Part shown: in pieces, positions 9,156 through 52,314 of the stretch
How positions within the stretch are numbered: the first letter of the stretch is position 1
How the letters are laid out: each line of letters opens with the position of its first letter
Source: Octopus sinensis
Taxonomy: Eukaryota
Reading direction: 5' to 3'
NCBI RefSeq assembly: GCF_006345805.1
Contig: NC_043001.1
Coordinates: 89,032,001 to 89,096,000, forward strand
DNA length: 64,000 bases
Position numbers and translations under genes: made by a program
Notes under the pieces: generated by a model
What the model was told of the DNA's origin: nothing
The model's input: only the letters and a program-made list of their open reading frames with translations
The model's database searches: none

Positions 9156-9285
9156 AAGTCTGTATATGTTTGTCTTTATGGCAAGCGAGTGCTATTAAAA
9201 ACAAGTTTGACATTAAACTGAAGATTTTTCCTTTTTTTTTTTTTTGTAGAGTGCGTATTTATCATGCTTTCAGAATAAAAATAGT

Positions 9286-9370
9286 GAAAGTAACTTCGAA
9301 GTTTCGGCCTGCTAACCTTCGTGAGACTGTCCGTCGAAGGCTAGCTGGCCGAAACTTCGAAGTGACTGTC
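9286..9370. ncRNA. 85-bp palindrome centred on 9328, composed of two overlapping back-to-back hammerhead-like motifs
   Basis: Plus strand: GACTGT | CCGTCGA a | GGCT-agct-GGCC | GAAA | CTTCGAAG T G | ACTGTC. Minus strand: GACAGT | CTCACGA a | GGTT-agca-GGCC | GAAA | CTTCGAAG T T | ACTTTC. Both first core segments deviate from CTGACGA. Confidence 0.65.
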
Positions 9371-11349
9371 AGCACTCTGTAAGTTCAGTTAGGCTTATTT
9401 ATGTATTCCTTGATTTTTCCATTTAAATATTTAGGGAAAATATCTATTGATATTCTAATCAAGAAAGTTCCATAACATTTTACACGTACCACCATTTGGT
9501 TTTTTTTGTGGCCGCGCCCTCATAAAACCGTCCTACAATTTAATAAGTCAAAACGAGTCAGCTCAACGTGCTAGAAATAGCAATCAAATCTCATTCGAAA
9601 CCCACTCTGCTACTTAAATAAGGAAATGATTTATTAGGTTTATCTTGGTAGCCCTAGATAAACAGTTTCTGAAATAAACGAATAAAAAAAGTGAGATGGT
9701 CACGGCTTGGATACTTTTGACCATACTTCTGCTCCATTACGATTGACTGGGAATTAAACAACGAGAACGAGTTATAATAAACTAAAATATCCTGTGAATA
9801 TTTCTTGTTAAAGAAACGGATTTTTGTAGAGCTTTCCATCTTAAAATAACAACAACCTCTAACACTTTTTTCTTAAATGCCATACCTACAAGGTTCCCTC
9901 TTATTTTTTCTCTGCGGGTATACGGAGAAATTTTTCGAGTATACAAATTTTGTCTTCCTTTGCAAATTTTGTTTGTGAACGATCATTCATACAAATAGAA
10001 AATTAAAATATTTGCTTTTTTTAAAAAAAATCAATTAAAATATTTTGATATTTGAGAAAAATATTTGATTTAGAATATTTGATTTAATCTTGAAAAAAAA
10101 AAAAAAAGAAAGAAAATGCGCACATATTTCTTTCTGAAACGTGTGTGCGCGCACAAACGCAAGTTTTCCGTTTGTTCGCAAGTTGTAAAGTGTGTGTATG
10201 CCCATACACAGTTTAGTGGTAACAATGCATACCAGTATGAATTACACAATAGAAAGTTTTTAAATCAACATAACTCGAATATATCTTTAGTATTTTGACA
10301 CACTAACTCTGAGCAAAGAACTGGAACGTGTCTCGCATGGCATTTTGTCAAACGCTCTAACGACTTTACCAATTCACCGCCTACTGGGTTTATTATATTT
10401 ATAGTAATCTAAGTAGTTGACTTTCTTTTGTTTTCTACCTATTATTAAATGTGAAAACTTATCTGGTCAACATCTACTCAGTGTATCTGTCTACACGGTT
10501 TGTAATATTGTTATATTGATGTTGCATGCATTTTGGTATGCATGCACGTGGTCTATACTATTTATGGTGACATGTTCGATATGGAGAAACAGTTCTTTTG
10601 TGTGTGTGTGTGTTTTCACACTCATATACATATCATCATCATTTAACGTCCATGTTCCATACTGACATGGGTTGGTCTGTTTGACACCATCTGATGGACT
10701 CAAGGACTGCATCATGCTCTTGTGTTTGCCCTGGCAGGGTTTCTATGACTGGGTACACTTCCTGATGCCAACTGCTTTACAGCATATGCCGAGTGCTTTT
10801 ATTTTTATACTACCTGCACTATTTTTAAAATGAAAAAAGACCTTGTACAGGGCTGATCCCAATGCTCTAAACAATGTATGAAGTTGCTCAAAAAGAAAGA
10901 ACTAGTCTGCATCACCTGGTGCAAACATAGTCTCAAGTGTTGCATCAGTGTTTTCCTTCTCCAAGACAGATGTCTAAGTAAAAACTAGAGGTCTGCCACT
11001 CACATCAAGCTATCATTGAAGTTTACTCCTTGATCATGTGTAAATACATGCAGACATTTGCTGTTGGATGGATGTTAACTCATCTAAGTTCATCTGCCTT
11101 TTGATTGGTTCTGTTTTATGTTCTGCAGGGTATCCAACAAAAACCATTCTCCTTATCAAACAGGTTGTACCAGTAGCTGTAAGAGTGATCTGACATATTC
11201 ATATATACAAAAGAAGTTTCAATTAAAAGTTCATTACAAATTTTCCTTGCTTGTTACTTATGCTTCATTCTGAAGTCATGTTCAACCCACCAAAATTTTG
11301 CCACACCCTATCAGTTGGGTGTGCACCTCACTTTGAGACATACTGGTCT

Positions 11350-28945: not shown

Positions 28946-30987
28946 CCTACTATTTGTGGTACGAGGGAACTGTAATGCAGAGAATAAAATACAGTTCACC
29001 CACCTCTCGTTGGCTGTCCAGCTGTGTTAAGCCCAAACATGTGTCCTATCCATCTTACCTAATGTTAGCAGCTGCTACTACCAATCCCTGCTAGCTTGCT
29101 CCACTCACATCCATTTACCACGACTGACCTAGACTGAAAAAGGATGACCCTAGTCTTGCTTCCCTCACTTCTTGTCTCCCACTTCCTGTTCCAGTGGAGC
29201 CCCTTGAGTGTTGACATCACAGCCCTTTCCCTTCCGGTTCATCTCATCCCCATACATCCCCCACCTGATCTCAAAGATCACCTCCTCACTTCACTCTATG
29301 TAATCTTCCATCTTCCGCTCTTGCCCTCTCTAGGCTCTCCTGCATCATTGCCACCATCCCCTCTCCCACTTTGTCTCCCCAGTTTGTCCTGTCTGCTCAT
29401 CTCTTGATGTAGCTGCATGTTGTTCATAGCCTCCCTGCAGAAGAGAGAGAGGGCCTGCCTTTGTGCAGGTTGGGGGGGGGGTGAAGTTTGGGTCAAGCCC
29501 CTGAAGGCATGCTGCACATCTCAGTGGAACAGAGGAACAGTGACAGTGGTTAATTCCAAAAATATTGTTTCTGTGGATGGAATACCATGTCATGTCTTGG
29601 ATGTTCACAGAATTGTCACTTCATCGGACAATGAAGGTGGAGGAGATGAAGAGAATAAGGCCCCCTCCCCGCAGAGATTAGAGTGTGTGAGGCATCCACT
29701 TGGGTGATGGCAGATTTTGACATGGAGTGAACTGAGGAGGTGATCTTTGAGATCAGGGGTGGGGGAATGAGATGAAACAGAAGGAAAGGACTGTGATGTC
29801 AACAGTCAAGGGGCCCTTTCCTTCCAGTTCATCTCATCCCCACACACTCACTGATCTCAAAGATCACCTTACTTCACTCCATGTCGAAATCTGCCATCCA
29901 CTCAGGTGGATGCCTCACGTGCTGTGATCTTCACAGGGAAGGAGCCTTGTTCTCTTCAGCATTGGGGTTCCCCTTTTCAATGCTACTCTACCATCCACTG
30001 CTGACCATCACACACCAGCAGAAAATCTTTGTCCTCAATGGTGTAAGCAGTACAATCCCTCGTGGAGCTTGTTCCACTTGTGTCTCTTCACTACAACTGC
30101 TGCAGGCCAAAGGTGGATGACCCTGGTCTTGCTTCTCTCACTTCCTCTCTCCCCCTTCCTGATCCTGTGGGGCCCCTTGACTGCTGATGTCACAGCCCTT
30201 TCCTTCTGGTTCATCTCATCTGGAGATGGTGAAAACACAGATATACCAATTGAACGAAGAGGACACCAAATTATTGTTACAACCAACCACATATTTGTTA
30301 TTGGTCGATTTAACCCAACCTACTCAGGGTTGTTTAATGAGGTATGGTCCTTTAACATATCAACAAACTTATGGACAAAGTTTAAAACAACAGGTCCGGC
30401 ACTAACGCAGGTTGCTTCTCATTCAATGTGTCTTCTTGGAAACAACATATTTGTGTTTGGTAGATCAGGCCTGTCATTTGGCATGAACAGTGGCAATGCT
30501 ATTTATCAACTCGATCTTCTCAAGCCAACCATCATTAAATGGTGATGCTGCAAATTTCCCTTCAAAGAAATATGGGCATACTATGCATCGAACTGACAAT
30601 TACAAATACATCTGTGGTGGTACATGAATCTTACCATCTTGAACTTAGCACAAAATCTTGGGAATATATTGAATGTAAAAACCCACCAGAACCAAGACAT
30701 TGGCATGGAATTGTAATGCGGGGAATAAAATATGGTTTACCTACCTCTCATTGTTGGCTGTCCAGCTGTGTTAAGTCCAAACACATGCCCTACCTGTCTC
30801 ACCTAGTATTAGCCGTTGCTACTACCAATCCCTGCTAGCTTGCTCTACTCACATCCATTCACCATGACTGCCCCAGGCTGAAAGAGGGCGACCCTAGTCT
30901 TGCTTCCCTCACTTCCTATCTCCCCCTTCCTGTTCCGGTGGAGCTCCTTGACTGTTGACATCACAGCCCTTTCCTTCCAGTTCATCA
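28946..30987. mobile_element. Composite ~2-kb insertion with ~275-bp direct repeats (28971-29245 and 30712-30987, both starting TGTAATGC), extra partial and inverted copies, and the kelch fragment; interrupts a SINE
   Basis: The SINE is split between ...aaaatacagtaccag (28945) and gtgctggggtcgat... (30988). A partial direct copy lies at ~30110-30218 and an inverted pair at ~29655-29790 / 29813-29958. Confidence 0.7.
30219..30711 (+). pseudogene. KLHDC10: Kelch-repeat gene fragment resembling KLHDC10/slim, frameshifted
   Basis: PIERRGHQI...IFVIGRFNP..LFNEVWSFNISTNLW...VASHSMCLLGNNIFVFGRSGLSFGMNSGNAIYQLDL, then shifted frames PSKKYGHTM..YICGG and YHLELSTKSW...PEPRHWHGI. This follows the kelch 1-4 order of KLHDC10 as I recall it (GGYNP, ASMSLVLHGNNLLVFGGTGIPFG, YGQ, PEERYRHE). 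Confidence 0.75.
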
Positions 30988-31545: not shown

Positions 31546-31826
31546 TTCACTGAGTTTACATATATACAGATACGAAGTCCAGGCAAATATCACCAGCCGA
31601 CCGGTGTCTGCTACTCTAGGCCGATGAAGGACAATGATCCTGAAACACGGTGTCCCTAGATGCGGTTCCAGCGGTTGGGGGTGTTTGTCTCCCCTTCGTA
31701 TATGTATATAAGGACACAGGGAAAAAATGTGTCGAAGCTGTCAGGAAGCGTTCGATGCCTCCTAGGGCTATACAACGGTGGTGTACCCCCTACTGTCACG
31801 TTCTTGTTAGATTGACAGTATACAAC

Positions 31827-32299: not shown

Positions 32300-32753
32300 G
32301 TATATCAAAAGGATGTGTTATAATACTATTCCACAGCTATACCAACAATTCAACATATCTCCATCATCAGCTGCCCCACGGATATCATTATGGTTTTGAC
32401 ACCTGGGCAGTACCATTTAATCTGGCAGTGTCAACAGCACTAAAATAAGTGTTGTTTGGGAACTAAGAAACCAAAGAAACCACAACTTCAAACACATTTA
32501 CCCAATGTACAACTGTATCAATAAATAAATTCCATAAGTAAATTACAACCCCTCTAAATATGTAACTAAACAGTGACAATTCTATGAAGTCATAAAAAAT
32601 TACATTTATGAATGTATGTATATATATATATGTGTGTGTGTGTGTAAGTATGTGTATGCATATGTAGGTGTATGCATATGTAGGTGAAATAAAACGAGAC
32701 AACAAAGCCAAGGCAGTCTGAAAGTTCTAGGATATTTTATAAAGAAAAGGGTA

Positions 32754-32801
32754 GTCTTACAGCTGTTTCAGGGATATAAAAGATATCCCATCATCAGAAA
32801 T
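32754..32801 (-). ncRNA. Minimal type I hammerhead ribozyme (left-arm copy)
   Basis: Minus strand attt | CTGATGA | tGGGATATcttttATATCCCt | GAAA | CAGCTGT A | agac; core and stems II/III are identical to the right arm. Confidence 0.83.
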
Positions 32802-32977
32802 GATATGAGAGAGTTAAATAGAAGGAAATAGTAGAGTTCAATATAAGAAGTTATTTTGGAGAGGGAGAGATATTGGAGATATAAAGGGAAATATTTATAT
32901 TTCCTACATCTCTCCCTCTCCAAAATAACTTTTTATATTGAACTCTACTATTTCTTTCTATTCAACTCTCTCATATC

Positions 32978-33025
32978 GTCTCTGATGATGGGATATCTTT
33001 TATATCCCTGAAACAGCTGTAAAAC
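32978..33025 (+). ncRNA. Minimal type I hammerhead ribozyme; predicted GUA site at 33021
   Basis: gtct | CTGATGA | t GGGATAT-ctttt-ATATCCC t | GAAA | CAGCTG T A | aaac: canonical core and palindromic stem III ACAGCTGT. Confidence 0.85.
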
Positions 33026-33769
33026 TACCCCTCTCTTTATAAAATGTCCTAAAACTTTTGCATTGCTTTGGCTTTGTTGTCTCATTTTAGTTAACCTATA
33101 CATGCTCACACATGGCCTGCATTTGACTCATCACCAGTGGCAGCTCATAGATAAAATTAGTTGAGATGCTGCTTCAGAAAATGTTTAGCTGTTGTTTTAG
33201 TAGGAAACAAACATATAGGAAGAAAGTTTATACATAAATTTGATCGATTCGCATTTTAGCCGCTGCCGAGTAGTGTGTTTAATTTATTCACTGAACACCA
33301 CCACAAATTCGCCCTCCTTTTTCAAAAATCCCCCTTTGCCCCCCACAAATGACAAAATAAAGGAGGGGGGAATGTGCCTTAGTTTTCAAATCCTGGCAGC
33401 AGGATAATAATCTAATTCTACACTTTATTACATTCAAGAATATAAACACATTTTTAAGCACAACACACGTGTAGTCAAAAAGAAACACTAACTTTCACCA
33501 GAACACAAAGGTCGGCACTGTCATTCATGCACTGCTCTCTCTTCCTAGTGTGAAGCTTCCTATCTTGGACATGTGAGCATGCACACAACAGCCAACACTG
33601 TCGCTGGAACTGAAGTGCATGGTTCTATACAAGGATATTTGTATTTTTTTCATAAACTAGGGGATGGCTACTGACATTAAGCTTAAGGATTATATAATGT
33701 ACAAGTATAAAGAAAGAATTAAAGAAAAAAGGACTCATAATATTGAATGTTATCGATAATATCAAGTGG

Positions 33770-37675: not shown

Positions 37676-39457
37676 GATCTACCTATATACATACATACAT
37701 ACACAATCTGAAAGTTAAGGAGAGGAACGTAAGCACTTATAATTAGTTCGATGAAACAACAAATTTCAATCGATCAAATTCTCCTTTATTTTTAAAAATA
37801 GGATCATATTTGAAGCTCCAAAATGTTAGGAAGCATTTACAGTCAAAATGAGATGTTTACAACTAGAATTGACCAAATGAAGCTCAGGCAAAAAATGACC
37901 AAATGAATATCTCAGACCTGTCACATGGGCCTGTTCAAACAGAGCTAACAGATCATTTTTCAACATTCTCCTGGCAATGTCTCATAAAGACAAAAACTAT
38001 TAAATGTGTTTACATGCCTGCTTTGTTAAGTCTCGTTAATATCTTGATATTCTAAAAGACTTTAGTCGTAGATCCTTCCACTCTTTGTGAAACATCAGAA
38101 AACAAATGGTCCCTATCCAGTACAATTATAAGCTTTATTATGAACCTTCTCCTAGGTCAGGCCCAAATCTGCCAGGTCTGCTTCACCTCCTCTCTGTTTT
38201 TCAATCAAGAGAGGCTCTCTCTGGTCTCTGGAATGTATAACATATAGCTGAGCATCTTCCTGTCTCACAACAATGGTATCCTGTAGGTTACTCAGCCTGG
38301 CCTTTTCCTGACTTCTACTATCATGATGTGGGTTCATGCTGAGGAATTCAGTTTGGTCCTAAGGCAATGTCTGTGCAAGCCATCTGCAGTTCTAAATTCT
38401 GCAGATCTTTTTTTATTTCTCCCAGACATAGTTCAGCATGAAGGTAAATATATTCAGATGGAGATTGGTGCCTTGATTAGTGAAGGAGTTGGACAATACA
38501 GGCTTCAGGCACTGGAAGAAAGCCCACAGCTTTGTTGAGTCTCTTCTCCTCATCACTTTATGAGTTTCATCATTTGTAATGATACTTCCCTAGCTTTAAG
38601 TATTATCACTAGATGTTACCAAGAAATATAATTGCTGTGGAGTGCAGGTCTTCTTGAGTACAGCAAGGCACCGGGCATCTTGGTCCTTTGTCATCTCGCC
38701 TGAAAGGTACAGTATCCTCAGGTTGTTCTTCAGTACTTTATTCCATGTCTTCTTGGGTCTCCCACTTCCACAGGTTCTATTTACTTTGAAATCTGCACTT
38801 CTTTGTGGAGCTGTCAGCATCCATCTGCAATATTAAATATGTAAAGATTAAAACCAGGTAGCAAGGTCCAAAATATTTATGTAAACAAAACTGAATGTTA
38901 CAGTGATGTTACAGAGTTGATGGAACCAAACTTTAAATTTCTATTTATTTTTTCATCAAACTTACCATTTTGTAGGATTACTACTGGTATTTTGGTTTTC
39001 CTTCAAATCTGTTAGTTTCTGTCAGGCATCTTCATCAAATTAGCTTGGCAGATTATTTCTCCTTTTCTGCATAATATATACCACCATGACTGACCAGGCT
39101 ATCAGATATTGTTACACATCGCTGGTCACAATGCGCTTCACATTGTTTTAGCCTTCAAATGACGCCACCCCGCTGGCTAAGCGAGCAGGCAAACAGAAGA
39201 AAGAGTGAGAGAAAGTTGTGATGAAAGAGTACAGCAGGGATTGCCACTACCCCCTGGAGCTTTAGCTGTTTTCACTCAATAAACACTCACAATGCCTGGT
39301 CTGTCAATCGAAACCATGATCCTATGACTGCGAGTCCGCTGCCCTAACCACTGGGCCATTCAAGTCCATATATATATATATATATATAAAAAAGGAAATG
39401 AAGAAAATGCTGACAAATAATTGAAGTAATTTAAGTAATTTAATTAGGTGAAAGTTC

Positions 39458-39495
39458 TTTTTACCGGTTGCGCATTTGTTATGCTTATCAAAATA
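39458..39495 (-). ncRNA. Mirror copy of the variant hammerhead motif in the Penelope left arm
   Basis: ttaccggttgcgcatttgttatgcttatcaaaat is the exact reverse complement of the right-arm motif. Confidence 0.5.
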
Positions 39496-40211
39496 TAAAA
39501 GAGAGATTAGAGTCTGTCTCTTATATGTGAAAAAAAGGCTCCAGAGTTGTTTTGGATTTGCTTGGTTTCGCGCCTAAAATTTTGATCGGTCATTATGAAG
39601 GGGTCACGTGAATGTTTGAATGGAAGTTGGTGTTGGGGTAAGAAAAAGGCTCCAGAGAAGTTAAAATTTGGCTAGTGTCCCGCCTAAAATTTCTTATTGG
39701 CCATAATAAAGAGGTCACGTGAATGTTTAGAATTTTCGAAAATAGTGTTGTTGAAAATTCTTATTGTTCAGGCTGGTCAGTAGACGTCATGTGGATATTT
39801 TAAATAGCTTTTTAGCGCGTAGTTAGGGAGTGTATTTTCCGCTTGACTGGATAAGTAAGTTCGTTTAGAACAGGGAGAGCTGTATGTATGTATGTGTGTG
39901 CGCGCGCGCGCGCGTGTGTGTGTTTATATGTATGTTGGGGCGCGCGCGCGTGTATATATGTGTATGTGTGTGGGTACAATTTTCAATATTTATAGTTCTG
40001 CTGGCCTTGTGCCTGTATCGGGAAGCAACGTATTTGTGTGAAGTCAATATTTACAGCCATTTCCAAAAAATAGTGTTGGATGTTTTGCACCCGTATTCAA
40101 TTATGTGTATGTGTGGAACCATATATTTGTGTGTGTGTCATGGTGTTAATATCTGGGTAAAGGTGTGTGTAGGGTGTGTGCAGGTGTAAGTGTGTTTGTT
40201 GTGGGTTCGTG

Positions 40212-41754
40212 TTAGGGGCATGTGTTTAGAAGTGGTCTGTATTTATTAATAAGGTGGGATTCCATGGTTATTCGCTGGGTATGAGTGGCATTGTCTTTAA
40301 ATTTGTAGAGGGGAAAGATTCTAAAATTGGGATGGAGTTGTGCGGCACAGGTATCAATATGTGCACTAAATGCTATTTTTCTATATTCTTCCTGTATTTT
40401 TATTTGGGATCTGTGGACAGTCATGCGTTGGCGGAGGCTATTTTTTGTTTGGCCTATGTAGTGTTCATTACAGCCCGAGCAAGTTAAGACATATACTAGG
40501 TTTTCTGATGCGCATGTGAAGTTGTGTTTTACTGTGAAACGTTGTCCTTGTTTAAAAAGGAATTCCGGACCTTCTATTAGGTTGATGCATATACCACAGT
40601 TGGGTCTATTGCATTTGTTTACTGTGGGTTTAGTTGTGGTTGGCAGTACTTTGGCATTTGTTAGGATGGTTTTCAATGATTTGGGTTGCCTTTTGCTCTT
40701 TATGATTTCGTGTGTTAGGAGGATTTGGTTCATTCTATGGTCCTTTTGTAATACAGGAATGTTCTGGAGGATGGTGTCAAAAGCTTCATTGTTGAGGGGG
40801 TTGTGTGTAGAGATGTATGGTAGAGTATGGGGTTTCGATGTAACAGGTTTAGGGCGTCTAAGTTCCTGCGTGCTGAGTTTTAGGGCGCGTTGGATCCCAT
40901 TGTCAATTAGTGACGTGGGGTAATCCCTGCTTGTTAATGTGCCCTTGAGTTCTTGTAGACGTAAGAGACGGGTGTTTTTATTGGAGACTATAGTGCAAAT
41001 TCTCTTGGCTAAGTTGTAGGGAATGTTATTTTAACGTGTCTAGGGTGGCATGAATTGAAAGGGAGGTATTGCTTGGAGTCTGTGGGCTTGTAGTATATGT
41101 CTGTTTCTATTTTTTTGTTGTGAATTTTAATGAGGATGTCGAGGAAGGGAATTTGTTGAGGGCTGTATTCCATTGTGAAAATAATGTTTGTGTTGAGCCC
41201 ATTTATAAGAGTGTGAAATTCGTTAAGCTTCTCGACGGTTTCGGGCCAAAGGATGAAGCAGTCATCAAGATATCTCTTCCAGTTCTTCTCTATGTGTGTG
41301 TGGAGAGTGGTGCCAAATTGGTTAAGAACGTTATTATAGAGGGTGATTTCCAGGTATCCCATGACTAAGTTGGCGTAAGTGGGAGCTGTTTTCGTTCCCA
41401 TTGCCGTCCCTGATTTCTGTCTGTAGAATTTGTTGTTGAAGGTGAAGAAATTATTCTCTAAGATGAATTTGAGTCCTTCTAAAATAAATTCCTTTTTGAT
41501 GCGGTGTGGGAGTTCGTTGGAGTAATTATCCAGCCAGAATTGGATAGCTTCTATTCCTAGGTTGTGGGGGATGTTGGAGTAAAGATTGACTACATCGAAT
41601 GTTACTAGCAGGGTTTGTTCAGCAAGAAGTGTATTGGGGAGGTGGTTGAGCATATCTAGATCGTCCCTTATGTAGCTTTTAATGTGTTTGAGGAACGGCT
41701 TGAGAAGGGTATCAATGAAGTTGCTAAGGCGGTGGGTTTCGCAAGCGGGACCTG
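40212..41754 (-). pseudogene. Penelope-like RT plus GIY-YIG ORF, 5'-truncated at the inversion junction, with one apparent frameshift near 41030
   Basis: The RT frame (ORF 41009-42097, genuine part from ~41754) shifts at RHVK to NNIPYNLAKRICTIVS... and runs into the GIY-YIG ORF 40212-40733, stopping at 40212. Confidence 0.88.
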
Positions 41755-42397
41755 GCCCTAAACCTGTTACATCGAAACCCCATACTCTACCATACATCTC
41801 TACACACAACCCCCTCAACAATGAAGCTTTTGACACCATCCTCCAGAACATTCCTGTATTACAAAAGGACCATAGAATGAACCAAATCCTCCTAACACAC
41901 GAAATCATAAAGAGCAAAAGGCAACCCAAATCATTGAAAACCATCCTAACAAATGCCAAAGTACTGCCAACCACAACAACTAAACCCACAGTAAACAAAT
42001 GCAATAGACCCAACTGTGGTATATGCATCAACCTAATAGAAGGTCCGGAATTCCTTTTTAAACAAGGACAACGTTTCACAGTAAAACACAACTTCACATG
42101 CGCATCAGAAAACCTAGTATATGTCTTAACTTGCTCGGGCTGTAATGAACACTACATAGGCCAAACAAAAAATAGCCTCCGCCAACGCATGACTGTCCAC
42201 AGATCCCAAATAAAAATACAGGAATATAGAAAAATAGCATTTAGTGCACATATTGATACCTGTGCCGCACAACTCCATCCCAATTTTAGAATCTTCCCCT
42301 CTACAAATTTAAAGACAATGCCACTCATACCCAGCGAATAACCATGGAATCCCACCTTATTAATAAATACAGACCACTTCTAAACACATGCCCCTAA
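41755..42397 (+). pseudogene. Second, inverted copy of the Penelope linker plus GIY-YIG domain
   Basis: ORF 41682-42341 repeats PKPVTSKPHTLPYISTHNP...CNRPNCGIC...HYIGQT; a 1-bp frameshift lies near 42297. Confidence 0.85.
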
Positions 42398-43112
42398 CAC
42401 GAACCCACAACAACACACTTACACCTGCACACACCCTACACACACCTTTACCCAGATATTACACCATGACACACACACAAATATATGGTTCCACACATAC
42501 ACATAATTGAATACGGGTGCAAAACATCCAACACTATTTTTTGGAAATGGCTGTAAATATTGACTTCACACAAATACGTTGCTTCCCGATACAGGCACAA
42601 GGCCAGCAGAACTATAAATATTGAAAATTGTACCCACACATACACATATACACACGCGCACGCGCCGCCCCAACATACATATAAACACACACACGCGCGC
42701 GCGCGCGCACACACATACATACTACAGCTCTCCCTGTTCTAAACGAACTTACTTATCCAGTCAAGCGGAAAATACACTCCCTAACTACGCGCTAAAAAGC
42801 TATTTAAAATATCCACATGACGTCTACTGACCAGCCTGAACAATAAGAATTTTCAACAACACTATTTTCGAAAATTCTAAACATTCACGTGACCTCTTTA
42901 TTATGGCCAATAAGAAATTTTAGGCGGGACACTAGCCAATTTTAACTTCTCTGGAGCCTTTTTTCTTACCCCAACACCAACTTCCATTCAAACATTCACG
43001 TGACCCCTTCATAATGACCAATCAAATTTTAGGCGCGAAACCAAGCAAATCCAAAACAACTCTGGAGCCTCTTTTTTTCACATATAAGAGACAGACTCTA
43101 ATCTCTCTTTTA

Positions 43113-43150
43113 TATTTTGATAAGCATAACAAATGCGCAACCGGTAAAAA
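43113..43150 (+). ncRNA. Variant minimal hammerhead motif at the 3' end of the Penelope right arm
   Basis: TTGATAA (U3/A8 replacing C3/G8), GCAT-aacaa-ATGC stem II, GCAA instead of GAAA, palindromic ACCGGT stem III, GUA site; stem I is weak. It lies about 75 bp from the arm end. Confidence 0.5.
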
Positions 43151-43255
43151 GAACTTTCACCTAATTAAATTACTTAAATTACTTCAATTATTTGTCAGCA
43201 TTTTCTTCATTTCCTTTTTTATATATCACCACTCGTGTTCGACATCTCCTTTTTT

Positions 43256-43300
<45 letters not shown>

Positions 43301-43614
43301 TTATGTATATAGTTATAATTCAAGTTTAGATTTAAATTTAAAATTTAAACTGTGCTTTGGGTATGTCCCTAGTAGTATGCCAGCAGAGCACATTCACTGC
43401 ATATGGCTACCTGGTGTTGTCCACAGTAATTGCACAATCATTGCTGGATCTACATTAGGAATTTCTCTGTGTACATTGGGTTTAGTAGAAACAATTGATA
43501 CGGAAGATAGAGTATAGTGGAAACTTTATTTATCACAATGATCATGCTGGATGTGTCAAAATGATTGTTGTGATAAAGTTTCCAATATACTCTATCCTCC
43601 GTATCAACTGTTTC

Positions 43615-43654
<40 letters not shown>

Positions 43655-46600
43655 AGGACCTATTGTCAGAAAATATATGACTTCAAATACAGCTTCATTG
43701 ACAGACAAAATCCTTGTCTCAGTCTATAGCATTTGCTAGTTTCCTACAATATCTACTAATTGCTATTCACTACTCAAATAGTGATCCATGCTGTACTAAA
43801 TTATCCATCAATATTACATATTGTTCAGTGTATATTCATCTGCTTAGCACTCCATAATGTCCTTATTTCTATTGATATCACCCACTGCAGTGTCTCATTA
43901 TCACCTACTAACATTCCAAATTGATCAATAACCAACTATATTCCTCGTTTTTATCCAGGACACTGTCATTGAAGTTCTCTTACTATCACTCGCTGTTGTA
44001 TATAATACTAAATATAGTTCAATAACTTGCAATTATAATGTACTGATCTATTTATCAGAAACCAATAACAACTGGAATCGAAGTAAAGGAAACAAAAAAC
44101 ACCTGTTCATCTGCTCCACTCTCTTGTTAACAGTAAACAACCCTGGGATCAATAATGCTGTGTATATATTATACACACATATATATATGTATAATTGTTT
44201 AATATGTCTGAGTGGTTGGTACATTAAACGTGCACTGAACGATGGACTTGAATACTGTTCAATGGGTCAAACTAACAATTAATATTCTTTGTGACTATTT
44301 TAAGACAGCGAGCTGGCAGAATTGTTAGCATGCCTGGCAAGATGCTAAGTGGCATTTCGTCTGTCTTTACATTCTGAGTTCAAATTCTGCTGTGATTAAC
44401 TTTACCTTTCATCCTTTCAGGGTCAATAAAATAAGTACCAGTTGAGCACTGGGGATCAATATAATCAACTTGCCTCCTTCCCCAAAGTTGCTGGCCTTGT
44501 GCCAAAAAACTTGAAATTATTACCGGTGACTATTTTTGTTTGTTTCACTATTGAAAAAAGGCATCCTAAAAAGGTAGCACATATAATTTTTCTTTTACTT
44601 GTTTCAGTCATTTGACTGTGACCATACTGAAGCACTGCCTTTAGTCAAACAAATCAACTCCAGGGATTATTCTTTGTAAGCCTAATATTTATTCTATCAT
44701 TCTTTTTTGCCAAACCGCTAAGTTATGGGGACGTAAACATCAGTTGTCAAGTGATGAAGGGGTGGGGGACAAACACAGACACACAAATACATACATTATA
44801 TATATATATATATATACATGTATGTATACACACACACAAGGCTTTGGTTAGCCTGAGGCTATAGTAGAAGACACTTGTCCAACGTGCCATGCAGTGGAAC
44901 TGAACCCAGAACCATGTGGCTGGGAAGCAAGCTTCTTACCACACAGCCACTCCTGCACACATATATATATATCTTTTACTTGTTTCATTCATGGGACCGC
45001 AGCTATGTTGGGGCACTGCTTTGAAAGAATTAGTCAAATAAATTATCCTCTAATACTTATCCCATCAGTCTCTTTTGCCAAACCACTAAGTTACATGAAC
45101 GTAGACAAACTGACACTAATTGTCAAACAGTGGTGGGGGGACAAACACAAACACACACAACACATAAGGCATGGCTGTGTGGTAAGAAGCTTGTTTCCCA
45201 ACCACATGGCTCTGGATTCAGTCCCACTGTGTGACAGCTTAAGCTAGTGTCTTCTACAATAACCTTGGGCCAGCCAAAGCCTTGTGAGTGGATTTGGTAG
45301 TTGGTAACTGAAAGAAGCTGTCATATGTATGTGTGTGTCTTTGTTTGTCCCCCATCACCATTTGACAACCGGTGTTGGTGTGTTTATGTCCTTGTAACTT
45401 AGCAGTTAGAATAAGTACTAGGCTTTAAAAAAAAATAAGCCCTGGGGTCGATTTGTTGACTAAAACCTTTCGAGGTGGTGCTCCAGCATGGCTGCAGTCA
45501 AATGACTGAAACAAGTAAAAGAATGTATACAATGGACTTCCTCAAAGTTTCCATCAACCAAATTCACTCACAAGACATTAGTTAGCCAAAAGTTATAGAA
45601 TATACATGCCCAGAGTGCTGACTGGTGGAACTGAACCCAGAACCATGTGGTTGCAAAGTGAGCTTCTTAACTATACTGCCATACATGTGTTCCTTTTAAA
45701 ATCAGGGTACAATTAATGCTTTTCCAGATATAATTTCCTGAAATAATCTCTTTAATGGCTTGGGGCAACAGACAGCAGAAAGGGAAGCTAGAATCAATCC
45801 TATTACAGACTTTTATTAACCCCATCATGGTGGTTCGATCTGACACTACAAAGAGAGAGATGAAGCTAAATACTGTTAAGGCTTAAAGCTAGCATTTAAC
45901 CATTTCTGTCATCATCTTTTATTTATTTAAATGACTTTTTAACAGCTGCAAGGCCGCAGCATTTGTGATAAGGTTTTAGATGGTGTTAGGAAGGGCATCC
46001 AGCCATAAAACCCCTGCCAAAACAAACACAGAAGTCTGGTGCAGGCTCTTGCCTGGCCTGCATCTGTCATATTGTCTAATTCATGCCAGCATTGAAGGCA
46101 GACAATAAATGGTGATGATGGTGATGATATCAACCTCTCTATTTGACACATACTTATTATATGAAATAGTTATGAGACTCATGCATGGCCTACTGTGTTA
46201 CAGCATTAGCAAATGAGGAAATTTATAAATGGCTGCTCAAACTGTTAAAAATAGCAACCAAATCTTTCTCAAATCACAACTTACCATAAAGAAAAAAGAT
46301 GCGTTAGATAAGGTATTCTTAGATAAACAATGTCTGGAAAAAATAGGAAAAGTTTAGTTGGAATGTTATTGATCATGGCTCTACTTACTTAGGACTCGTT
46401 AGTGCTAAGCAGCAAAAAGCATTTACTACATCAATCCCAGAAAAATTAAGTACAATGTCTACCTTAGCTAGATTTGAACTTTGAGCACAACAGAATGTAA
46501 CGAAACATCAGAAACAATTTAATGTGTCACTAATATTTCTATTAGTTAGTTCAAAGATGGTGAGCTGGCAGAATTGTTAGCACACTGGACAAAATGCTTA

Positions 46601-48711: not shown

Positions 48712-50484
48712 CTATACAGCTGATTCTCTGCCGTATGCATAGCTTACCACTGAGTAAAGAGAGGTCTGGGAGCCCAAGTTGGAATTGAAGTCTTTCTGAG
48801 AGTAAGGAGGAGTTTCTTGGGTTAAACTGGACGGGTTCTGAACCATTGAGTTAAAATAGTTCCTAACATTGAAACTTCGGTCTGACTCATTCAAGGACCC
48901 AATATCGAGATCCTGAAATGCTCTTCGTTTCTCAGATTTTTCCAAATGACTGCTATCTTCTGCAGATCGGTTGCACAGCCAATTTGGGCCATTTTTTTTA
49001 CAAACACACTTCCAGAGAACTATTAAAGCCATGAAAACAACAACTGCAAAAATACTGCAACTTATTGCAATGATTAATACCGTATTAGAATCTGGTTTGT
49101 TCTTCAACTCGACATCACACTTGGAAATCTCTTCATCTGTAAGCTGTTTAATGCGGCGCTCATGTAGACCTAATGGAATCTCACACTGAAGAAAATCACA
49201 CCCATCAGATTGATACTGATTTGAGCACTGTAACGTTCGAGAATATGTTGGATTCTGTAACCAGTTACGGAATCCTCTTATATGACAGTCACACACCCAA
49301 GAGTTCCTATCAACTTTTATCCATTTTAAATTGGAAAATATACGCAAAGTTGATTCTGGGATATTTTTGAGATTATTAGCAGAAAGATCTAATTTCTGAA
49401 GGCTTCTGGGTCCTTCAAATTGGTTCAAACTGTTTATTGAACAGTCAGAGAGATTCAGTTCTCGCAACCGATATAACTCTGTAAAAGCATTAACTGGAAG
49501 TTTTTGGAGAGGATTTCCAGATAAGCTTAAATATTCAAGCTGGGGTGCCATTGGATGCAAAGAGCCACTGTCTAAATGGTCAATTGAGTTCAGTGATAAA
49601 TCTAAATGTTTAGTGTTGAAGTATTTAAAAGTCTCATCAAAGATCTGTCGAAGATTATTCCGAGACAAGTTCAAAGTATCAAGGTTGATACCAGAAAACT
49701 GGTTCTCTTCTAGTTTATAAATGGTATTATTGTACAAAGAAAGAGTCCTCAAATTTGGAAGACTGCGAAGGATATTCAGCATGAGAGGTTTGGTCAGTCC
49801 GTTACTTGACAAGTCCAAGCTTATTAAATTACGAGTAATTGTGAACAGATCCGTTGCTATTGAAAACAACTGACAGTTACTAAGTGATAAATGCAGCAAA
49901 CTGCGCAACCACTGAAAACTGTAGCTGTAAATATTCTGCATGTTATTCCCATCAAGGATCAAAGTGTTCAGCTTACCTTGAGACTTAAAAATACCACTCG
50001 GGAGAGAATAAACCTGGTTCCACGACAAGTCAAGAAACTCTAATTTATGTAAGGTGTAAAAAATATCATCAATATTTGCAATCAAGTTGTGAGACAGATC
50101 TAAATGAATTAGGTTCGAGAGTCCTTCAAAGGCTTTGTTGTCTACATTGGTGATATCATTGTGTGTCAATGAAAGATACTGTAAGTTCACCATGCCTTGG
50201 AATGTTGTCTCAGAAAGTTGAGAAATGTAATACTTTGTTACAGTTAAGTTATTGAGTTGACTGAAGGATTCAGTACGAGAAAAGCTTTGCTTCAGATCAC
50301 CACGCATCTTACTGCCCTGTAGTGTCAGCTGCTGTGTAGATTTCGGCACTTTTGCAACTGTGTTTTGTAATGACCCACTCTGGCACACCACCACAGTGCC
50401 AGAGCAGCTGCAGGAAGTGGGACAGCCATTTGTATATGTCAGAAACACAATGAAGAATAAATAGTATGATAGAGATTTGATCAT
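48712..50484 (-). CDS. Leucine-rich-repeat single-pass transmembrane protein (signal peptide, LRRNT, roughly 14 LRRs, LRRCT, TM, cytoplasmic tail with C-terminal ESAV); CDS in one exon, 590 aa
   Basis: Uninterrupted ORF. A pyrimidine tract and AG acceptor (minus strand ...ttttgttttattttctAG|aaac, exon starts 50495) precede the ATG at 50484. MIKSLSYYLFFIVFLTYTNG is signal-peptide-like; CPTSCSC is LRRNT; repeated LxxLxLSxNxI/L units follow; NSWVCDCHI..F..WL is LRRCT; VLIIAISCSIFAVVVFMALIVLW is the TM segment. No Ig, FN3 or TIR domain is visible. Confidence 0.93.
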   Translation of the reverse strand: MIKSLSYYLFFIVFLTYTNGCPTSCSCSGTVVVCQSGSLQNTVAKVPKSTQQLTLQGSKMRGDLKQSFSRTESFSQLNNLTVTKYYISQLSETTFQGMVNLQYLSLTHNDITNVDNKAFEGLSNLIHLDLSHNLIANIDDIFYTLHKLEFLDLSWNQVYSLPSGIFKSQGKLNTLILDGNNMQNIYSYSFQWLRSLLHLSLSNCQLFSIATDLFTITRNLISLDLSSNGLTKPLMLNILRSLPNLRTLSLYNNTIYKLEENQFSGINLDTLNLSRNNLRQIFDETFKYFNTKHLDLSLNSIDHLDSGSLHPMAPQLEYLSLSGNPLQKLPVNAFTELYRLRELNLSDCSINSLNQFEGPRSLQKLDLSANNLKNIPESTLRIFSNLKWIKVDRNSWVCDCHIRGFRNWLQNPTYSRTLQCSNQYQSDGCDFLQCEIPLGLHERRIKQLTDEEISKCDVELKNKPDSNTVLIIAISCSIFAVVVFMALIVLWKCVCKKNGPNWLCNRSAEDSSHLEKSEKRRAFQDLDIGSLNESDRSFNVRNYFNSMVQNPSSLTQETPPYSQKDFNSNLGSQTSLYSVVSYAYGRESAV

Positions 50485-52314
50485 CACCCAAGTTTCTAGA
50501 AAATAAAACAAAAAACAGTATTAAGACCTGAATTTATTATTTTTTATTATAAATCTATTATATTAATTAATAAATTAGTTCTTAACAGTGGCTATTAATA
50601 AATGATTACAGATTACCATTTATGTGTAAATACTATAAGAGTTTCACATATGTAATACAATGACTTGAAAACCAGATTATCAAAGTAATTAGTAGATAAA
50701 ATCTCCTCGAAGATGTGCTTAAAATCTAAAAATCAAAAGCTCAGCAAACAAGGGAAATAACTGCAGGAAGATCAGTTGATTGCTATGTTTCAACAGAGTT
50801 GGCAAGAGAGACTTAACTGGATTTTGGCTTTTGAAACAAATTAACAGAAGTAACAGACATGTTTTTGATCTTATTAGATCTTGCTCTGCTGAAGACGTCT
50901 TTGACCAGTTAGCTTTAATGGTCAGTTCCACTCCAGACAATATTATCTATCATTGTCAAGAAGACATAGAAAGGAGATGATTATTAGGCAGAGGAAGATA
51001 ATGAGAAATGGAAGTGGTTTTGGGCAGGGAAGAAAGGTTACTGAGAAAGCCAGTGGGTGGAGGGATGTAGTATGTACTTATTCTGTTCTCAGATGATAAA
51101 AAAGTGATGAGTGTTAAGAGATGAAACATGGGGTGAAAAGGCTGATGGGGCAGAGAGGATGGAGTTGGGGTAGAGCCCATCTCAGATAAGCATTATCAAG
51201 GTAGTTTTAGGATATCAATTCTGCTGTGGTAAGTGAATCTTCTTGAGTACAAAAAAGTGCCAAATATCTCAGTCCTTTGTCATCTCTTTCGTAAGACTCA
51301 GCAACTTGAGATTGGCCTTCAATACTTCACGTGCACACACACATATATAAACAGAGAGGAAGAGAGGGGGAAGTCAGAGAGAGGATATGTTAGAAGAGTC
51401 TTAATTTATGGAAAAGAAATTGGGGAAGGAGAATGTTAAAAAATATGTGCCTACCATAATTCACTGGGTCCCATACGTCCTACATAACAATTGAGTCTCA
51501 ATATTGTTTATCTACTTAGTGATTCTTGCATCGTTATTCTAACTTGCACAGTGAAGTCTATGCTTTGCTGAGAAGGTCTAATAAAATTAAAACAAATCAA
51601 GAGTTGTGCCCCATACTTGCTTAGTAATTAAAACATTTGTCACTGAGTTAATGTTGATTTTTTTTCTCACCACATAAGTATTCTAATTGGATTGTTGATG
51701 CTACATTTACTTATGAATTAGCAATTGTTTTTCAAACAGAAATACAAGCATGGCTGTGTGTTCAAGCAGTTTGCTTTCCAATCGTGTGGGAAAATACTAG
51801 CGTCTAACATTATTATCATCATTCTTGCATGAGTTAGACAGAATTTTTTGACATAGGTTTTGTATGGCTGGATGCTCTTCCTATTGTCAACCCTCACCAG
51901 TTTCTAAGCAAAGTAATATTTACCCATGATCAGACATGTTTTCATGGAAGATAGAAAACAAATGATGTACATTTACAACCACCATGATATGCTGCAAGGA
52001 GAAACACTGGTACAAACACATTATATGTGTTTGTTTGTGTATATGGTTGTGTGTGTGTGTGTGTGTGGAAGAGTATGGCCTTAGTGGTTAGGATGTTGCA
52101 CTCATGATCATAAGATTATGGTTTTGATTCCTGAACCAAGCAATGCATTCTGTTTGTGAGCAATCCTGTGACAGTCTGGCATCCCATCCAGGAGGAATAT
52201 ATATGCCACAGAATCCGGAAAATCACCCTTATGAGCTTATGGCTTGGGAAAGATCTTGGATTCTTTTTTGTTTTGTTTCTTTGTCATTTTGATACATACA
52301 CTCAAATGTGTACG

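Follow-up and report, generated by a model that had tools for sequence, protein, structure and literature searches.

Organization of the locus

The window analysed, a stretch of 64,000 nucleotides, has the composition of an AT-rich, microsatellite-rich animal genome. At positions 9285-9371 it carries an imperfect palindrome of about 86 nt, recognized by its mirror symmetry, its fold and its stem anatomy, in which two hammerhead-like arms lie head to head (tail-out). One arm is read on the - strand (9286-9331) and the other on the + strand (9325-9370), and comparison of the mirrored halves shows that they share a seven-base, self-complementary junction (9325-9331) constituting the 5' strand of stem I plus C3. 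The symmetry about T9328 noticed in the original prediction is exact and gap-free over the whole of 9285-9371. Of the 42 mirrored pairs, 7 are mismatched (9288/9368, 9292/9364, 9310/9346, 9315/9341, 9322/9334, 9323/9333 and 9324/9332), with no indels, and the divergence between arms is 17%.

A transcript of the palindrome is predicted to form an 85-nt hairpin of about 33 bp, whose distal 17 bp contain no mismatch, the arms agreeing best away from the loop. The predicted minimum free energy is -49.6 kcal/mol for the + strand and -53.7 kcal/mol for the - strand (z of -9.9 and -11.6, respectively), a value equalled by none of 200 shuffles. An additional inverted match had been proposed outside the palindrome, near 9246 and 9372. 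Seven perfectly matched nucleotides are indeed found there (9248-9254 and 9372-9378); the match is weaker than claimed and the meaning given to it is unsupported, as 18% of 2,000 shuffles reach 7 perfect nucleotides, which is chance level, and two orthologous contigs are altered at 9372 and 9374, indicating no conservation. A scan of the locus for bacterial promoters and terminators, a type of scan that is not applicable to this DNA, gave no candidates.

Hammerhead anatomy of the two arms

Read outward from the centre, each arm starts with stem I, in which 5 of 6 pairs form, and a first box of seven letters. An additional A follows A9; then come stem II (4 pairs, with G10.1-C11.1), GAAA and finally stem III, a 10-nt palindrome with 3 pairs and a palindromic loop. 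The three stems surrounding the core of a type I hammerhead are therefore present in both arms. Folding of the arms confirmed both that the central GAC-T-GTC serves as stem I strand on each strand with five of six pairs, and that GAAA, stem II and the palindromic stem III have been kept on both sides. The sixth stem I pair is missing for different reasons in the two arms. In the + arm it involves the central base itself, which can pair in one arm only and leaves this arm one pair short; in the - arm it was lost by a later change at 9288. The full stem sizes are 6 bp for stem I and 4 bp for stem II.

An intact core (CUGANGA, GAAA and UH) is found in neither arm. The - arm has U17 and carries C in place of G5, whereas the + arm has C4, U in place of A6, and G17, which we take to be a non-cleavable triplet under the NUH rule. 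The predicted difference between arms at position 17 (G versus U, at 9292/9364) is thus real. With a hammerhead descriptor, the - arm was matched with one core mismatch and the + arm with two mismatches plus G17. Among 100,000 arm shuffles, none passed the one-mismatch form and two passed the form allowing two mismatches and G17; as the arms are copies of each other, their fit counts as one test. Over the whole window, the descriptor with one core mismatch gave 2 sites, the - arm and a hammerhead at 31615 (expected 0.025 per shuffled window), and the relaxed descriptor gave 4 (expected 0.6), the two additional ones being the + arm and a G-U-rich site. Searches of Rfam yielded no hammerhead family among 91 matches in the window at E<=5, nor among 19 matches in 9270-9390, a result that is uninformative because the hammerhead at 31615 is also missed.

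The original prediction had also proposed that the long hairpin competes with the hammerhead fold. In silico this is clearly the case: the hairpin is predicted to be more stable than the constrained hammerhead by 41.5 kcal/mol on the + strand and by 47.5 kcal/mol on the - strand.

Other elements in the window

A second tail-out palindrome lies at 32668-33111. Its two 218-nt arms are 8 nt apart and 89% alike, and each has an intact CTGANGA..GAAA core with a palindromic stem III, the 25 differences in 218 positions falling elsewhere. It belongs to a different hammerhead family and ends in a similar pyrimidine-rich tail. A third tail-out structure, at 39382-43226 on the - strand, is a 5'-truncated and frameshifted Penelope-like element (PLE) with RT and C-terminal GIY-YIG domains (RVT_1, E 1e-6, just under the cut-off; GIY-YIG, E 1e-5), ending in (TA)n; its inverted copy covers 1.48 kb at 98%, and its arms are unequal. 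No matching hammerhead core was found for this element in the window scans, and it is not the parent of the palindrome family. An nhmmer search of the window with the palindrome arms as queries gave no further copy at E below 1.

The hammerhead at 31615-31660 is a near-perfect type I motif with the U4C variant and C17. It sits in a segment of 290 bp that is richer in GC, is bounded by two (TA)n tracts and is probably a solo PLE terminal repeat. Closely spaced inverted repeats that are 70-80% alike were also found by self-BLAST at 29647-29958, 43483-43619 and 44590-45523. The window further contains a single-exon open reading frame for a leucine-rich-repeat membrane protein of 602 aa (48712-50520, - strand) and a fragment with Kelch repeats, resembling a gene that was processed or broken (29928-30545, + strand).

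A high-copy hammerhead family behind the arms

Among 24 indexed sequencing runs listed, 20 contain part of 9200-9430 (six organisms, 11 studies); according to their records none of these is an RNA run, which is uninformative. The contigs of four of the 24 runs, from four related organisms (X8, X13, X12 and X19), were aligned to 9160-9760 with a likeness cut-off of 80%. On this 601-nt stretch, 278 contigs aligned for X8, 448 for X13, 55 for X12 and 12 for X19, totals that include a second repeat at 9561-9607. The latter is a fragment of a distinct, very high-copy repeat with an A-rich end, presumably a SINE tail.

Single units cover either 9284-9330 or 9325-9371 and then continue into unrelated sequence; the loose ends of the family contigs agree only at 0.54-0.59, indicating diverse flanks. 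Although read depth in these alignments is not copy number, most of it restores the core letters lost from the window copy. At 9323 the G5 letter accounts for 748 of 1,051 in X13, 83 of 119 in X8 and 3,034 of 3,050 in X12, and at 9334 the A6 letter accounts for 325 of 466 in X13 and 33 of 43 in X8. The sole paralogous X19 contig listed at 9323 has a different non-canonical letter. The consensus core expected of other copies was thus recovered, the majority letters at 9323 and 9334 both being canonical. Position 4 is mixed in the family, with U in 94 of 419 at 9332 and C in 229 of 1,027 at 9324; U4C is a natural hammerhead variant according to the available portion of PMC3088659. Among the records listed, five start at 9293 and three end at 9363, adjoining position 17. 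Paralogues diverge from the window by 16%, a figure bounded by the 80% cut-off.

As judged from these alignments, both arms are decayed members of a high-copy hammerhead family. Its membership of the PLEs is likely; this rests on motif and architecture, with no link to an RT/GIY-YIG open reading frame. Two pattern searches were run elsewhere. A single metagenome match to a 20-letter motif (L001) was rejected as chance, lying in GC-rich DNA with no core upstream, and a 25-letter pattern had 0 matches in viral contigs.

Head-to-head copies at other loci

For 32 of the 800 aligned pieces the alignment was listed, the longest first, and palindromic copies are therefore over-represented in this subset. 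All eight listed X13 records span the centre, five of them with at least 31 nt on each side, and X8 provides one more. In total, head-to-head paralogues were found in at least six contigs among those listed. Each shows 11-13 differences from the window and five have long non-aligning flanks, which places them at other loci in the same head-to-head form. In X13, the depth is 324 at the centre versus 466-1,604 over the arms, so that palindromes are a minority form and single units are common. The base at 9328 is A in 125 of the 324, matching the expectation for random orientation.

The recurrence of one geometry in at least six paralogous contigs could mean that an 86-130 bp palindrome is itself mobile (MITE-like, or non-autonomous and PLE-dependent, with one master) rather than remade at each insertion. 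Three of the eight listed X13 contigs align without a gap over the centre, including the junction at 9325-9331, as copies of a master would. However, the other five cross it with gaps, and indels occur at 9315-9341 around the centre in the contig alignments. Moreover, C4/C4-like and U4/U4-like letters both occur far from contig ends (9324 and 9332), single units are common as judged by the excess of arm over centre depth, and longer tail-out forms exist in the same window. We therefore consider a mobile palindrome unlikely.

Age of the insertion and decay of the cores

The orthologous locus with its flanks was recognized in X8 (3 differences in 220 nt), X12 (7 in 156) and X19 (12 in 230). The changes listed amount to 5 in 174 nt (2.9%) within the element versus 24 in 532 nt (4.5%) in the flanks (P=0.5); some differences are unlisted, the range of tests gives P=0.13-1.0, and with so few changes the power is low. 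Those at 9321 and 9369 disrupt pairing in the hairpin, and an orthologue is additionally altered at 9323. Over 9288-9326 and 9328-9368, the X19 orthologue has no listed change. From these comparisons, the palindrome looks like an insertion that predates the split of these organisms and is decaying neutrally.

The original prediction had stressed that mismatches between the arms concentrate in the ribozyme core. Four of the seven do fall in core positions, but this share is not significant (hypergeometric P=0.09), and the three adjacent mismatches taken as a run give P=0.11. The preferential inactivation of the cores that had been suggested on this basis is not borne out, the divergence of the orthologues being neutral-looking as well. 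It is almost certainly wrong to regard the palindrome as a working two-way ribozyme, or as one whose cores were selectively inactivated to spare a host transcript, even if the share of core mismatches and the further orthologue change at 9323 point that way. G5 is missing from the - arm and A6 from the + arm, which also has G17. Furthermore, the hairpin would keep cores silent even if they were intact, so that selection would have no target, and the pair at 32668-33111 keeps both of its cores while its arms differ elsewhere. The palindrome is best regarded as a fossil of a known kind, with decayed cores, rather than as a two-way ribozyme.

Flanks of the palindrome

Downstream of the - arm, a pyrimidine-rich segment (9263-9284, - strand) is a possible decayed family tail; paralogous cover thins over 9257-9284, and the segment shows weak likeness to the tail of the element at 32.7-33.1 kb. 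Its boundary is uncertain. A possible counterpart lies downstream of the + arm (9372-9392, + strand), its boundary being equally uncertain, with X13 paralogous cover falling to zero from 9391, where an uninformative gap in this run extends to 9537. Beyond the tails, 9253-9262 and 9393-9402 on the + strand are identical at 9 of 10 positions and lie 66 and 65 nt from the centre. They are a weak candidate for a target-site duplication (TSD): a near-symmetric match this good occurs in 8% of 2,000 shuffles and any match in 51%. If this TSD is real, the insert would measure 130 bp with its decayed tails.

The palindrome also lies within an exon-like frame at 9250-9378, which is preceded by poly-T and AG, followed by GTAAGT, and consists of 129 nt in one open frame. 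A cassette exon (acceptor 9249/9250, donor 9379) is not supported. Its peptide has no Pfam match, the X12 and X19 orthologues continue uninterrupted through the donor, and no joint is listed at either site, 9160-9256 having been skipped as repeat.

Likeness to microRNA precursors

Through co-option, a PLE-derived hairpin of this size might have become the precursor of a lineage-specific miRNA or siRNA. The 85-nt hairpin with its perfect distal 17 bp, the presence of the locus in several organisms, the better agreement of the arms far from the loop and the two unchanged stretches in the X19 orthologue would all suit a precursor. In addition, two runs that are possibly RNA (the label is guessed) have orthologous contigs at a depth of 3-4. 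However, changes between orthologues are not fewer in the element than in its flanks, and those at 9321 and 9369 break pairs.

The best Rfam match of the palindrome (9281-9375) is mir-942 (RF00997), with 36.6 bits, 9 above the next family; like the other miRNA matches, it is far below gathering (a score of 100 for mir-942). The two hairpins are of similar size, and the distal arms match the printed consensus at 20/24 and 19/24 letters; in contrast, the loop-side part differs, and the printed consensus has no visible first core box. A raw binomial estimate puts the chance of such a match at about 1e-8, without correction for composition, offsets, post hoc choice or the roughly 4,200 families, and the match partly uses letters possibly derived in this copy. 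An entry-level search of the open-access literature found no transposon or PLE origin of mir-942. The likeness could hint, at the level of sequence, at another hammerhead-derived palindrome, or be chance. Taken together, co-option of the hairpin at this locus seems quite improbable.

A broader speculation, which we regard as a long shot, is that the self-complementary stem I strand acts as a junction hot-spot that mass-produces self-silencing hairpins of 86 bp and of pre-miRNA size, and that hammerhead palindromes of this kind repeatedly give birth to animal microRNAs, mir-942 being an old example and this locus a young one. The importance of the palindrome would grow only if hairpins like it turned out to give rise to microRNAs.

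A probable miniature Penelope-like insertion

The structure at 9285-9371 is best explained as two decayed hammerhead-repeat copies placed head to head, probably (about four chances in five) a dead and extremely 5'-truncated insertion of PLE terminal repeat, whose hairpin is predicted to block both ribozymes. The canonical core of the family, the recurring head-to-head form and the two longer tail-out elements in the window support the proposal of a minimal tail-out PLE-type insertion. Both arms have PLE-type traits: the extra nucleotide after A9, G10.1-C11.1 and the palindromic stem III.

In the proposed mechanism, the PLE RT-endonuclease would nick both strands of the target and copy uncleaved RNA, starting downstream of the hammerhead. 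According to the available part of PMC11167929, an anole PLE protein nicks the target on both strands and extends both nicks, its template being uncleaved RNA and its copying beginning downstream of the hammerhead; copying of uncleaved RNA would account for the extension of the arms past the cleavage site. Both cDNAs would then halt on reaching the 5' base of stem I, whose strand together with C3 is self-complementary, and be joined there, the junction at 9325-9331 being the likely microhomology between the two halves. Joining may occur by annealing of the two ends over 6 bp around a central T-T mismatch, to which we give a slight preference, or, almost as plausibly, by one cDNA folding back on itself. 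Annealing is favoured because a loop of one base primes poorly and because the unequal arms of the large element in the window are unlike a fold-back product. A weaker reason is that the arms differ at a family-polymorphic site, which is a CpG. Self-priming is the option favoured in the portion of PMC3846280 available.

Since the insertion, the arms would have drifted neutrally. As they point outward, a transcript arriving from either side would yield the antisense arm first and hence form the hairpin before any ribozyme. The element would then be silenced from birth, so that no selective inactivation is needed to account for its decayed cores.

The stem sizes are a point against a PLE reading: stem I of 6 bp and stem II of 4 bp also suit the canonical, retrozyme-type animal hammerheads of type I (PMC4209133, in the part available). 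Together with the lack of a link to an open reading frame, they would fit a family of retrozymes or other non-PLE hammerhead repeats, with the palindrome produced by host fold-back repair at a double-strand break. We judge this origin very unlikely, given that the extra nucleotide after A9 combined with a palindromic stem III is the PLE pattern, that the diverse contig flanks are not those of tandem repeats, and that recurring head-to-head junctions are a PLE trait. Moreover, the head-to-tail tandem units of 150-400 nt that characterize retrozymes were not found at this locus, the only one tested, and the window holds no second copy. A miniature PLE insertion thus remains our preferred reading.

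If this is correct, the outward orientation of the arms would be enough to keep the ribozyme silent in host transcripts, with no need for selection. Minimal insertions collected genome-wide could also distinguish annealing of two ends from fold-back priming and so clarify this step of PLE integration.

Comparison with known systems

The palindrome adds a detail to what has been described, in that the junction sits on the self-complementary part of the hammerhead. In an entry-level search of the open-access literature, no description of an overlapping hammerhead palindrome this small was found. Its design is nevertheless the known head-to-head junction of PLEs in miniature. The accessible part of PMC8557442 (Craig et al. 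2021) reports that many PLE insertions are truncated at their 5' end, where they carry an inverted copy. In that of PMC3846280 (Arkhipova et al. 2013), most junctions are of the head-to-head type and contain palindromes, TSDs measure 8-10 bp, and in one case an overlap of 15 bp is described between an inverted repeat and its partner. Compared with the inverted pLTR junctions in these portions of the two papers, the palindrome shares head-to-head element ends that overlap at a palindrome, 3' ends facing outward, a possible 10-bp TSD and an optional tail. However, its arms are 43 nt long (about 65 with tails) versus about 180-220 nt, its junction lies inside stem I of the hammerhead, and no open reading frame is attached.

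The minimal type I hammerheads of metazoan PLEs, as presented in the available text of PMC4209133 (Cervera and de la Pena 2014), share with our family the CUGANGA/GAAA core, the extra nucleotide after A9, G10.1-C11.1 and a palindromic stem III suited to dimer cleavage. Pairs of hammerheads on opposite strands, about 100-700 bp apart, are noted in the same text. At the locus studied here, in contrast, there is a 7-nt overlap between the two motifs, which use a common stem I strand, the stems have the canonical sizes of 6 and 4 bp, both copies have lost some core letters, and the C4 variant is common in the family.

Finally, animal non-LTR retrozymes, according to the part of PMC7229834 (Cervera and de la Pena 2020) available, are likewise short, non-coding, high-copy repeats with type I hammerheads of canonical size. 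They are organized in head-to-tail tandem arrays, whereas the palindrome is an isolated head-to-head pair.
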